Part shown: one piece after another, positions 3,972 to 46,096 of the stretch
Layout: each line of letters starts with the position of its first letter
Numbering within the stretch: the first letter of the stretch is position 1
Origin: a virus
Taxonomy: Duplodnaviria > Caudoviricetes
Length of the DNA stretch: 64,000 bases
IMG/VR virus record: IMGVR_UViG_3300028591_000099
Location: 96,982 to 160,981 of that record
Strand: one strand, 5' to 3'
The notes under the pieces: model-generated
Databases searched by the model: none
The model's input: only the letters and a program-made list of their open reading frames with translations
Told to the model about the DNA's origin: nothing
Position numbers and translations under genes: made by a program

Positions 3972-4010
3972 ATAAGGGGGTTAGTTATAAAAATTAACCC
4001 CAATTTTTTT
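3972..4010 (+). terminator. Rho-independent terminator
   Basis: GGGGTTAGTT...AATTAACCCC hairpin plus T-run. Confidence 0.65.
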
Positions 4011-4012
4011 AT

Positions 4013-4042
4013 TTGACATTTCTAGAAAAAATATTGTATAAT
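4013..4042 (+). promoter_or_regulatory. sigma-A-type promoter of the ORF-Hsp20-tRNA(UCA) operon
   Basis: TTGACA (4013-4018), 18 nt spacer, TATAAT (4037-4042). Confidence 0.75.
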
Positions 4043-4066
4043 AAATATAGTAAAGGAGAAGGCAAT

Positions 4067-4243
4067 ATGGAGTTATATTTAGATGATTATGAACAGCTTA
4101 AAAAGGTAGAGAACTTCTTATTCAGATTAATCTATCCAGAGCCTTTTACTTTACACATTTTAATAGACGAGACCAAGGAGCATTTTAATTATACTACAGA
4201 GTATAATGATTTAGCGGGCGGCCTTGTGTTAGTCACTTTTTAG
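4067..4243 (+). CDS. Small hypothetical protein (58 aa)
   Basis: AAGGAG RBS before ATG 4067; the TTG start at 4013 overlaps the promoter. Confidence 0.6.
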   Translation: MELYLDDYEQLKKVENFLFRLIYPEPFTLHILIDETKEHFNYTTEYNDLAGGLVLVTF

Positions 4244-4255
4244 GAGGTATTTAAT

Positions 4256-4630
4256 ATGTTATTTGATTATGATTCATTTTTTGATTGGGATAGACCAGCT
4301 TATAGTTTTAGTCGTTCAGTACACGACATGCATCCATATTCTATTAAAACTTTAGAAGATAGAGTTGTATTGGTTCATAACATTGTTGGTGTTAAAGAAG
4401 AAGATATCAAGGTTGATATTGAAAGAACAGAGGATGGAAGAGACCGACTTGTTATTGAGGGTGTAACTCATAATGATGTATTGAATTATGATTATAAAAT
4501 TAATTCAAAATTTTATATTAAAGCTGATATGTTTAAAGATGTAACCTATTATGTTAAGGATGGCTTACTTTATATTGAATTATTCAAAAAAGAACCAGAA
4601 GTTACCAAATTAACTGTCAGAAAAGCATAG
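4256..4630 (+). CDS. Hsp20/alpha-crystallin small heat-shock protein
   Basis: AGGAGG RBS; VGVKEEDIKVDI and VKDGLLYIEL alpha-crystallin motifs. Confidence 0.8.
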   Translation: MLFDYDSFFDWDRPAYSFSRSVHDMHPYSIKTLEDRVVLVHNIVGVKEEDIKVDIERTEDGRDRLVIEGVTHNDVLNYDYKINSKFYIKADMFKDVTYYVKDGLLYIELFKKEPEVTKLTVRKA

Positions 4631-4655
4631 AGAACACAGAAGTTCTCTACTACAT

Positions 4656-4930
4656 AGGGGTGTCGGTTAATGGTAAGCTCGCGGACTTCAACCGCGTAAG
4701 CGTGCAATGGTGCCTTATTGTAGGGATATAATAAGTGGAGGCAATGATATCGGTGAAGACTAAACTGAAAAGCATGTTAATACCGAGGGAACGAAAGGCC
4801 CGTAGAGACTAGATAATTGCCCAGCTAGATCAGCTGAAGATATAGTCCAGACCACAAACAGTAATGGTAATGAAAATTATAGTGGCAAGCAAACCCGCCA
4901 ATCCCCGTTCGAATCGGGGCACCCCTGCCA
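4656..4930 (+). tRNA. tRNA-Trp with anticodon UCA (UGA-decoding), split by an intron; exons 4656-4688 and 4890-4930
   Basis: Acceptor stem AGGGGTG/CACCCCT, G73, encoded CCA, T-arm CCCCG-TTCGAAT-CGGGG. Spliced anticodon arm GCGGA-CTTCAAA-CCCGC. A1-U72 and G73 are bacterial Trp identity elements. Confidence 0.9.
4689..4889 (+). mobile_element. Group I self-splicing intron (201 nt, no ORF) between anticodon positions 34 and 35
   Basis: P3 GGCAAT/ATTGCC, P4 ATCGGTG/TACCGA, R element CGTAGAGACTA, S element AAGATATAGTCC (P7), GNRA-capped P2 and P9, terminal G 4889. Confidence 0.9.
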
Positions 4931-4970
4931 AGGAAGTAATCGGCGAATTAAGTCGAAAAATATATAAAAA

Positions 4971-5010
4971 AAAATAGGGAGAGTATAATTAAATACTCTC
5001 CCTATTTTTT
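4971..5010. terminator. Bidirectional terminator where the two transcription arms converge
   Basis: A-run, TAGGGAGAGTAT...ATACTCTCCCTA, T-run. Confidence 0.8.
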
Positions 5011-5598
5011 ATTTTCATGGTGTAAATCTTTCATATCTTCTGCAGAAACCAGAACTTCATCAAATGTGCGATCTACCTGATGTTGTTCATCTTCCTTGAC
5101 TATTGGTAATCTAATAGCTCTTTCATAATAAGAATCACCTTGAGCATTACCACCTAATTTATTATAGATATGATGTAAATCACTTAATGTATCGAATTGA
5201 TATTGAGTCATCCAACCTTGTGCGATATAGGCCTTACAAGCATTGATTAATTGAAATTTATAGAATTGAATATCTTGTTCTTTTAAAACTTTGAAATCTT
5301 CTTCAACAGCTTTTAAATCATCAACCGCTTCCCAATACATATCACGATAACGTTTAAACTCACTGCTAGTCTCATTCTTAAAATCATTAAAAGTTTTTTC
5401 AACACTATTTTTAAAGTCTTGGCACATTTCTCTAACAATAGATTCAACATGGTCGTGTAAGGCTTGTTGATCATACTTTTCAGCTTTACTCTCTTTTTCA
5501 TTATGCTGCTTAACAAGTGTATCTCAAATATATTTGACTAAAAAGCCTCCAAAAGCCACTAAAACGTAGCTTAAAATTGCATCTGCTGAAATATTCAT
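5002..5598 (-). CDS. Holin-like membrane protein (198 aa); TGA=Trp
   Basis: GAGGGGG RBS and ATG 5598; N-terminal hydrophobic helix AILSYVLVAFGGFLVKYI-W (TGA 5524); C-terminal YNKLGGN motif seen in lysis-cassette proteins. Confidence 0.65.
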
Positions 5599-5655
5599 AA
5601 TACAGAAACCCCCTCTCGTATCAATAGTTATAAAAAAGGCTTTAATGGTCTTATA

Positions 5656-6171
5656 TTACTCTGACCAATCAAAGCCTTCATTATTTATAACTGTGGTGCC
5701 TGCGGACGGCCGCATACATACGTGACTGCCAATACAGATAGCATCGCATTCATCTTGCGTTGCCTTTACTTGATACTGCTGGAGAACATATGCTTGTGCA
5801 TTACGTTTCTGATCTGGTCTTGTGCGACCTTTGATCTGTAATGTTGATTTTCAAGTAGAGGAAGGAACAACTATGACATTTTTATTTAACTCCACTGCAG
5901 TCTCAAGAACTACACCGAATACATTTGCTAATACTTTGAAGGTTTTCACATTATTTCCAACCGAGGACTGCAGTTGTATATCTTCAAAGGCAATTGTGTC
6001 TATATCTCACTCTTGGACTTTTTTGATTATAAAGTTGCGAATGGTGACTAAACGTTCACCAACCTCTTCTTGCTCGGTAGTAAGATGCCCTCAATCTTTA
6101 AGCTCGCCGTCAATAAAGATAGATCACCCGGATACACGACTCGCTTGATCCAGGGCTAAAAGTTTAGACAT
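5656..6171 (-). CDS. ruvC: RuvC-like Holliday junction resolvase (171 aa); TGA=Trp; missed by the ORF track
   Basis: LLALDQASRVSGW, IAFEDIQ, PSSTWK and DECDAICIG catalytic motifs; TGA at 6124, 6091, 6007 and 5851. Confidence 0.9.
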
Positions 6172-41415: not shown

Positions 41416-41770
41416 TGGTGGAGGTGACGGGTATCGAACCCGTGTCCGCAATATCTATTCAATTTCGTATCTTTATCCACAGCTTACCAAGAGATGTCTT
41501 AAGCACATATATTTCTTGGGTGTTTTATGTGCGGCAGCCCGTTAAACCGACCGGATTAACCACCGGGCGCAAGTTAATTCGGCTTACTTTTGGGGGGTTT
41601 ACAATCTAGCAGGCAAAAGTAACCTGGTAAGAAGGGGCGAAGAAATTTTTAACCTTCGCAATAATATTTTTAACAAAATTTGCGTTTATATTTATTTTTT
41701 AGTCTATAAGGTGGACCAATCCGCTGCAACTACATCTTTCAATACCACGTCGAATCCAAAATACACCCCC
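41416..41770 (-). ncRNA. ssrA: tmRNA
   Basis: 5' GGGGGTGTATTTTGGATTCGAC, 3' GGACACGGGTTCGATACCCGTCACCTCCACCA, G3-U70; internal tag frame ANFVKNIIAKVKNFFAPSYQVTFAC*. Confidence 0.95.
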
Positions 41771-46022: not shown

Positions 46023-46096
46023 TGGAGCGGATAACCGGTTATGCTCCGGTGCTTAAACATTGGCAATGTTTCGTACTGCTATTATACGATACCCGC
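46023..46096 (-). tRNA. tRNA-Gly (GCC) with non-canonical D and T loops
   Basis: Loop TTGCCAA; T-loop AGCATAA; D-loop lacks GG. Confidence 0.8.

Follow-up and report, generated by a model that had tools for sequence, protein, structure and literature searches.

The stretch of DNA analysed here (the window; 64,000 nucleotides (nt)) is the last 64 kb of the 160,981-bp IMG/VR record IMGVR_UViG_3300028591_000099 (Caudoviricetes), which is estimated to be 93% complete, overlaps at its termini by about 100 bp and finds its nearest public DNA and RNA matches in sheep gut (rumen-type) metagenomes. On the plus strand, positions 4656-4930 hold a transfer RNA (tRNA) gene with the anticodon UCA that is split by an intron. 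Its 5' exon (4656-4688) comprises the acceptor strand AGGGGTG (4656-4662), the D arm, GCGGA and then C32, U33 and U34. The 3' exon (4890-4930) comprises C35, A36, A37 and A38, followed by CCCGC, a 4-nt variable loop, the T arm (4903-4919), the acceptor strand CACCCCT (4920-4926), G73 (4927) and CCA (4928-4930). The split lies between U34 and C35 of the anticodon, where 201 nt are inserted. Both exons were delimited with ARAGORN in its intron mode, the first with counts of the acceptor and anticodon-stem pairs and the second with a motif check. That standard tRNA finders would overlook this gene had been expected in an earlier note on this DNA, and this was indeed the case. In its default mode ARAGORN reported 22 tRNAs and a transfer-messenger RNA (tmRNA) in the genome, all on the minus strand at 41-51 kb and none at 4656-4930, and the Rfam tRNA model gave no match at 4656-4930. 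When introns were allowed, ARAGORN found a tRNA(tca) of 74 nt, interrupted by an intron of 201 nt with the junction gactt-(intron)-caaac, both in the region alone and in the whole genome. DNA contigs of one public run span both splice sites with zero differences and an independent IMG/VR contig carries the same gene, which rules out an assembly artefact.

Without the insert the tRNA forms a complete cloverleaf with A1-U72, G73, the encoded CCA, G18 and G19, the T loop TTCGAAT and the 4-nt variable loop, and its anticodon loop reads CUUCAAA. The anticodon UCA of the spliced product, as the earlier note had proposed, is what ARAGORN assigns in intron mode, and the necessity of splicing follows from the anatomy of the gene: because the 201 nt interrupt the anticodon, the suppressor can work only after their removal. 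A1-U72 and G73 are identity elements of the bacterial tryptophanyl-tRNA synthetase (TrpRS). Their presence in the window tRNA, and in nearly all of its relatives, agrees with the designation Trp-type that had been given to it. When 18 tRNAs of the phage's tRNA array were compared, the combination was common only to tRNA(UCA) and tRNA-Trp(CCA). Identity between the spliced tRNA and the tRNA-Trp(CCA) of the phage is 59%, and therefore the suppressor is not a recent copy of the latter.

Related loci were collected from IMG/VR by means of a 124-aa Hsp20-like protein that is encoded just upstream of the tRNA. In all 14 loci retrieved, a tRNA(tca) gene is situated directly downstream of the Hsp20-like gene. 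An intron of approximately 196-322 nt is present in 11 of them and absent in three (L009, L010 and L014 in our numbering), where an uninterrupted 72-nt tRNA(tca) with the loop CUUCAAC, as predicted for the spliced form, occupies the same locus. The intron-less orthologue L009:3400-3470 scored 62.1 bits with the Rfam tRNA model. It represents a natural spliced allele, and therefore the exons join as CUU + CAA. Across the diverged relatives the tRNA exons have kept the full cloverleaf. Presence or absence of the intron varies among sister phages, and the intron-less ones carry the same recoded genes, for example a RuvC gene with 3-4 TGAs. In L013 (3379-3773) and L015 the P6 loop holds about 120 nt more, and the intron measures 322 nt.

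The insert at 4689-4889 is a genuine group I intron of 201 nt without an open reading frame (ORF), in line with the earlier note. The Rfam model Intron_gpI (RF00028), which the note had named as a check on 4689-4889, matched 4694-4871 with 34.9 bits (E 4.3e-7 locally and 2.1e-8 genome-wide) as the sole match in the genome, a score that is below the gathering score of 50. For tRNA introns, scores from approximately 18-20 bits have been accepted, the Rfam seed being without bacterial sequences (Williams 2020, bioRxiv 10.1101/2020.01.27.920355). The predicted helices, located on the alignment of alleles, are P2 (4714-4721/4728-4735), P3 (GGCAAT 4740-4745/ATTGCC 4816-4821), P4 (4750-4754/4782-4786), P5 (4758-4760/4776-4778), P6 (4787-4789/4799-4801), P7 (4807-4811/4843-4847), P8 (4822-4826/4832-4836) and P9 (4852-4855/4882-4885). 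P1 (4688-4691/4707-4710) contains the pair U4688·G4710 and is formed with the guide AUG-GUG (4707-4712). The motif check placed the R element at about 4801-4811, the S element at 4837-4848 and the terminal G at 4889, and CAA is repeated at 4689-4691 and 4890-4892. All motifs and coordinates that had been proposed (acceptor strands, G73, CCA, T arm, P3, R and S elements, terminal G and CAA repeats) were correct.

The tRNA structure and P1-P9 were imposed on an alignment of ten intron alleles, and as controls the 3' partners were slid by 1-3 columns and the alignment was shuffled 500 times. Standard pairs filled 94% of the cells across the ten alleles versus 34-45% in the slid controls, 29 pairs were altered on both sides and none of the 500 shuffles attained the observed covariation score. 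The shuffle control overstates the significance because the alleles are kin; neither the slid controls nor the number of pairs altered on both sides has that weakness. P3, P5, P7, P8, P9 and P9a were 90-100% paired with changes on both sides, P2 was likewise compensatory, and P4 and P6 were invariant. Examples are GACUA/UAGUC versus GAGUA/UACUC in P7, GGCAAU/AUUGCC versus GGUGAU/AUCACC in P3 and CCAC/GUGG versus CUAC/GUAG in P9. The P3-P9 core with its P3/P7 pseudoknot, which is characteristic of group I introns, is therefore kept through compensatory changes. As expected of group I splice sites, U-1 wobbles with G and the intron ends in G in ten of ten alleles. The compensatory changes together with these invariant bases indicate selection on the ribozyme.

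The splice sites were further defined by the internal guide. One hexamer, xxx-GNG, lies just 5' of P2 in every member of the family; its GNG pairs with the exon end CUU, the first G wobbling with U34. The other guide triplet is xUG in 19 of 19 tRNA(UCA) genes, where it fits both the CAA at the start of the intron (P1 extension) and the CAA of the 3' exon (P10), and the base facing the first base of the 3' exon is a G in all 19. A tRNA-Leu(UAA) gene with a related intron has the guide UUU and the exon AAA, and two tRNA-Ile(UAU) genes have the guide UAU and the exon AUA; in these three genes the base facing the first exon base is U. That guide and exon vary together from one tRNA type to the next is independent confirmation of the 3' splice site, and it accounts for the CAA repeat. 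The repeat had been regarded as a junction that could slide; it is rather required by the shared P1-extension/P10 guide xUG. The group I rule of U at -1 and G as the last base is obeyed only by cuts after U4688 and G4889. The intron is situated at 34/35 of a CUU-NNN loop with a guide that pairs with both exon ends, as in site class 3Ug. The intron start CAACCGCG duplicates the 3' half of the anticodon arm, and an alternative precursor hairpin, CGCGG-ACUUCAA-CCGCG (window 4680-4696), is possible in which the splice site would be displayed in an anticodon-like loop; 2-5 of its pairs are kept in relatives.

The genes that would need such a tRNA are found mainly on the plus strand, in a block that extends from about 23 to 101 kb. 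With TGA read through (code 4), 93-99% of this block is covered by stop-to-stop frames versus 66-92% under code 11, and only then do frames of 2575, 2321 and 1726 codons appear. The plus-strand ORFs of the block that reach 150 aa or more hold 156 TGAs in frame, and their stop codon is TAA or TAG. In the minus-strand replication block, in-frame TGAs are absent from all but three genes. In the window, the code-4 ORF list gives nine genes with 26 in-frame TGAs, the number that the earlier note had counted. Comparison with PHROGs identified a sigma factor (four TGAs), the large subunit of terminase and the portal protein in the plus-strand block; a Pfam search with eight virion-block proteins gave no match. 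The amino acid was deduced from the RuvC-like resolvase gene (5656-6171, minus strand; PF02075, phrog_827), which has four in-frame TGAs. One of these (X107) falls on a Trp (TWKS) that is invariant in 19 of 19 homologues, and at the other three (X16, X27 and X55) the close homologues have W and the distant ones Y, F or H. These alignments support the proposed reading of TGA as Trp in this phage. A tally of TGA versus TGG codons in local orthologues was mixed, with few sites in diverged genes, and a PDB sequence search with the amidase-like gene (four TGAs) gave no match.

No tRNA(tca) beyond that at 4656-4930 was found genome-wide by ARAGORN in the default or the intron mode. A tRNA at 46026-46096 (minus strand; 47 bits with Rfam) that ARAGORN misses was considered as a second hidden suppressor and rejected, its anticodon being GCC; it is a tRNA-Gly(GCC) with the unusual T loop AGCAUAA. 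Neither an RF-1-domain protein nor a class-Ib synthetase (TrpRS) was found to be encoded in the genome, and charging is therefore left to the TrpRS of the host, which most likely uses the standard code. The tmRNA (41416-41770, minus strand) is situated at the edge of the tRNA array; it scored 101.2 bits with Rfam, and ARAGORN gives it a 25-residue tag ending in QVTFAC. A tmRNA is also present in L018, a phage with an intron-split suppressor. In the early region (G000:C1:1-23000) 30 ORFs have 80 aa or more; under code 11 TGA is the stop codon of nine of these, which would be read through once the suppressor is active.

A search with the P4-P7 core pattern returned 32 IMG/VR contigs of several lineages. 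In about 28 of these the 3' exon starts with CAA and the matching 5' exon ends in CUU, which makes them tRNA(UCA) genes, and their introns measure either 196-226 nt or, with an ORF, 591-805 nt. The one intron ORF that was tested (L019) is preceded by a Shine-Dalgarno sequence and belongs to the PD-(D/E)XK endonuclease family PF11645 (E 2.7e-17). The remaining contigs have the core in tRNA-Ile(UAU) (L035 and L039, one of them a 485-kb, megaphage-sized contig), in tRNA-Leu(UAA) (L038) and in one context that was not assigned. In bacterial genomes, mostly of Patescibacteria but also in other bacterial metagenome-assembled genomes, the core is present in introns of tRNA-Asp, Thr, Met, Tyr and Asn, and tRNA(UCA) did not occur among the 80 bacterial core-pattern matches examined. 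A direct link to the classical cyanobacterial tRNA-Leu intron was rejected, the cyanobacterial matches being outside tRNA genes (none with ARAGORN; flanks inspected by eye). With blastn against GenBank phages only core matches of about 55 nt were obtained, among them Atu_ph07; two crAss-like matches (cr111_1 and Kolpuevirus) lie between genes for a GIY-YIG endonuclease and a DnaB helicase and not in a tRNA. In another lineage (L018, L019, L020, L028, L030, L032 and L037) the split tRNA(UCA) has a long variable arm with a 4-5-bp stem and a 7-nt loop, CUCCAAA or CUCCAAC, a copy of the tRNA-Trp anticodon arm with CCA, which is possibly a decoy for TrpRS. The window's tRNA is without this arm.

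The intron in the window holds no homing endonuclease ORF and in this respect does not qualify as a mobile intron. Because intron-less relatives are recoded too, the same core occurs with an endonuclease gene elsewhere and the core is also present in tRNA-Leu and tRNA-Ile, the pattern is nevertheless that of a mobile passenger. Judged from these comparisons, the intron is most likely a degenerate, ORF-less remnant of a mobile intron family, tolerated since it splices, and not a regulatory device.

The tRNA is the last gene of a short transcription unit (4013-5010) that lies far from the 23-gene tRNA array and of which both ORFs and the tRNA are kept in all 14 related loci. Downstream of a terminator at 3977-4001, a sigma-70-type promoter (4013-4042, plus strand) matches the consensus at 12 of 12 positions, with TTGACA, an 18-nt spacer, TATAAT and a TG just before the second hexamer. 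By eye, most relatives show a TTGAC(A/T)/TGTATAAT-like pair at the corresponding position. The first gene of the operon (4067-4243, plus strand) is an ORF of 58 aa, with a Shine-Dalgarno sequence in all relatives. The second (4256-4630, plus strand) encodes the 124-aa Hsp20-like protein without in-frame TGA, which was recognized by phrog_432 (Hsp20) and scored 18.5 bits with PF00011, below the cut-off of 20.8. A hairpin with a 9-bp stem between the Hsp20-like gene and the tRNA (4627-4650), of which similar sequences are present in relatives, is a candidate processing site. The bidirectional intrinsic terminator at 4969-5010 (18-bp stem, T runs on both strands) ends both the tRNA operon and the converging minus-strand genes.

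Promoter sites of this kind number 29 genome-wide versus 0.65 expected: 20 in the early region at 6-23 kb, one before the sigma factor-like gene, seven in the replication block and one in the virion block at 23-98 kb. The sigma factor-like gene (G000:C1:22852-23992; L016:51-992; PHROGs E 1.6e-40) has four in-frame TGAs and a consensus host-type promoter directly 5' of it. It seems from this arrangement that late transcription has to await the suppressor. We infer that the suppressor precursor is an early product of the host RNA polymerase, and that the full-length sigma-like factor, and then the late genes, need the mature suppressor. The sigma-factor step is thus a plausible place for a delay, whereas splicing as the slow step is without support.

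Taken together, the locus is very likely the phage's only opal suppressor, a Trp-type tRNA(UCA) split by an ORF-less group I intron that is a passenger and not a regulator. According to this proposal the operon of promoter, 58-aa ORF, Hsp20-like gene, tRNA and terminator would be transcribed by the host RNA polymerase with the tRNA as its last cistron. The intron would then fold, its guide AUG-GUG pairing with the exon end CUU (with the U34·G wobble) and with the intron's own CAA, and guanosine would attack after U34. The same guide bases would hold the CAA of the 3' exon (P10), and ligation of the exons after G4889 would yield the loop CUUCAAA. After end processing, the host TrpRS would charge the tRNA by way of A1-U72, G73, C35 and A36, and Trp would be inserted wherever virion, lysis and a few other genes carry an in-frame UGA, about 180 times in all and including the sigma factor-like gene with its four UGAs.

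The earlier note had arrived at the same Trp-type tRNA(UCA) and the same group I intron, which are retained, and had proposed that the tRNA supplies Trp at the TGAs of the late genes; it is the only UGA-decoding tRNA that was found. The note had also suggested that the intron acts as a gate that could delay lysis and packaging. Such a regulated gate, in which slow or conditional splicing (by GTP, Mg2+ or a phage factor) limits translation of UGA-containing mRNAs and the intron is kept for timing, is unlikely, although several observations are in its favour. The suppressor is inactive before splicing by its anatomy; its host-type consensus promoter is like those of the early genes, and the sigma-like gene with its four UGAs stands behind another such promoter, so that a delay after transcription could be of consequence; P1 is weak in this clade; and the intron is kept at 11 of the 14 sister loci. 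However, three intron-less sister phages have the same recoded genes, and the core is common to mobile versions that bear a PD-(D/E)XK endonuclease gene, to phage tRNA-Leu and tRNA-Ile introns and to many bacterial tRNAs. Besides, no feature of the sequence points to a sensor. To our knowledge, the group I tRNA introns studied to date splice within minutes or faster. In a more specific form, host polymerase would make the pre-tRNA and the UGA-laden sigma-like mRNA together, with splicing as the slow step that sets the early-to-late delay. We consider this slightly less probable again; if true, a self-splicing RNA would be the clock of a genetic-code switch.

A number of observations weigh against the explanation that we favour. 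Once spliced, the tRNA carries an A31·C39 mismatch in its anticodon stem, at a position where U31-A39 is found in most of the relatives. The mismatch is probably tolerated, because the same A31/A38/C39 combination recurs in L031, a phage tRNA(UCA) of an unrelated lineage. The near-identical contigs L001 and L002 have G1 instead of A1, which in L002 gives the pair G1·U72. P1 is weak throughout the clade of the window: the guide GUG puts U33 opposite U, and the P1 of the window (AUG-GUG) amounts to three pairs. The score of the intron with the Rfam model stays under the gathering score. Folded alone, the intron was no more stable than shuffled sequence (z -0.39), and its support is therefore comparative, not thermodynamic. 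The amino acid at TGA is deduced from alignments. Finally, contigs from three metatranscriptome runs on sheep rumen and from a single DNA run were aligned to 4000-5700. Among the RNA-library contigs, X8 (4474-4792, no differences) runs unspliced across the 5' splice site and X2 (4835-4933) across the 3' splice site. The joint 4688-4890 was present in no contig, where it should be noted that contigs cannot show a 74-nt tRNA and that the libraries may hold DNA.

The mismatch, the weak P1, the low Rfam score and the absence of a spliced read (from contigs only) would speak for a dead gene, in which either splicing or tRNA function is lost, and for decoding of UGA by a host suppressor, by near-cognate tRNA-Trp(CCA) or by a co-infecting phage. 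We regard this as very improbable. The core helices are kept by compensatory changes with U-1·G and the terminal G invariant, the cloverleaf is kept across diverged relatives, the A31/A38/C39 loop recurs in an unrelated lineage, and the approximately 180 in-frame UGAs need a decoder for which no other candidate is encoded. Least probable of all is charging of the tRNA(UCA) with Gly (as in code 25), Cys or Arg: base 34 differs from that of tRNA-Trp, the identity to the phage's own tRNA-Trp(CCA) is low and ARAGORN assigns no isotype, but TGA falls on the invariant Trp of RuvC and on Trp at three more sites in close relatives, and A1-U72 with G73 is shared within the array only with tRNA-Trp(CCA).

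The intron-split suppressor resembles several known systems. The cyanobacterial and plastid tRNA-Leu(UAA) intron (Leu.3Ug, IC3; Williams 2020) occupies the same site after U34 in a CUU-NAA loop. It is also alike in its U-1·G, its terminal G, a short P1 and P10 served by one guide, a length of about 200 nt and the lack of an ORF. Williams (2020) makes no mention of Trp, suppressors or phages. The phage tRNA-Leu(UAA) gene L038 has an intron with the same core motif as that of the window. Unlike the tRNA-Leu(UAA) intron, however, the window's intron resides in a phage stop-codon suppressor and its guide is xUG and not UUU, fitting the exon CAA; the likeness to IC3 is by core motif only. The group I intron of Synechocystis tRNA-fMet encodes the PD-(D/E)XK homing endonuclease I-Ssp6803I (PF11645). 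The likeness here is through the 591-805-nt phage tRNA(UCA) versions with the PF11645 ORF in L019, whereas the intron in the window is ORF-less and its site is 34/35 as opposed to the fMet site. In Mollicutes and mitochondria, tRNA-Trp(UCA) has U34 and reads both UGA and UGG, code 4 is used throughout and release factor 2 is absent. The window tRNA is likewise Trp-type with U34, but it is brought by a phage into a host with a likely standard code and its gene is split.

The recoded gut phages (Yutin 2021, PMC7886860; Borges 2021, bioRxiv 10.1101/2021.08.26.457843) have the same change of TGA to Trp mostly in virion and lysis genes, replication genes in the standard code and a phage-encoded tRNA(UCA); in contrast to the window, their suppressors are uninterrupted genes. 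Both studies reported many recoded genomes without a detectable suppressor and suggested undetectable tRNAs (Yutin 2021; Borges 2021). A suppressor was detected in 35% of the code 4 genomes (Borges 2021), and for the remainder host suppressors or very odd tRNAs were invoked (Yutin 2021; Borges 2021). An intron in a suppressor tRNA is mentioned in neither. In Lak megaphages, 'enigmatic' introns were described in tRNA-Tyr, tRNA-Thr and others (Devoto 2019, PMC6784885). Like the intron studied here they are phage tRNA introns that vary between close genomes; they differ in not being classed as group I and not being tied to a suppressor (Devoto 2019). A full-text literature search, with most subscription journals outside its coverage, turned up no account of a phage suppressor tRNA that holds a group I intron.

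The find combines tRNA-resident group I introns with phage suppressor tRNAs, each of which is known. An ordinary-looking suppressor is concealed here by a group I intron, as it is in 11 of the 14 loci of the clade. Since suppressors are concealed both in this clade and in about 28 of the 32 contigs with the core, tRNA finders in intron mode combined with a group I model should recover many of the 'missing' ones, which would help to predict the code and to call the genes of gut and rumen phages more accurately. The dependence of the suppressor on ribozyme activity makes the question of timing testable with intron-containing and intron-less alleles. In the IMG/VR contigs, a homing-type intron family is resident mainly in the very gene that defines the genetic code of the phage.

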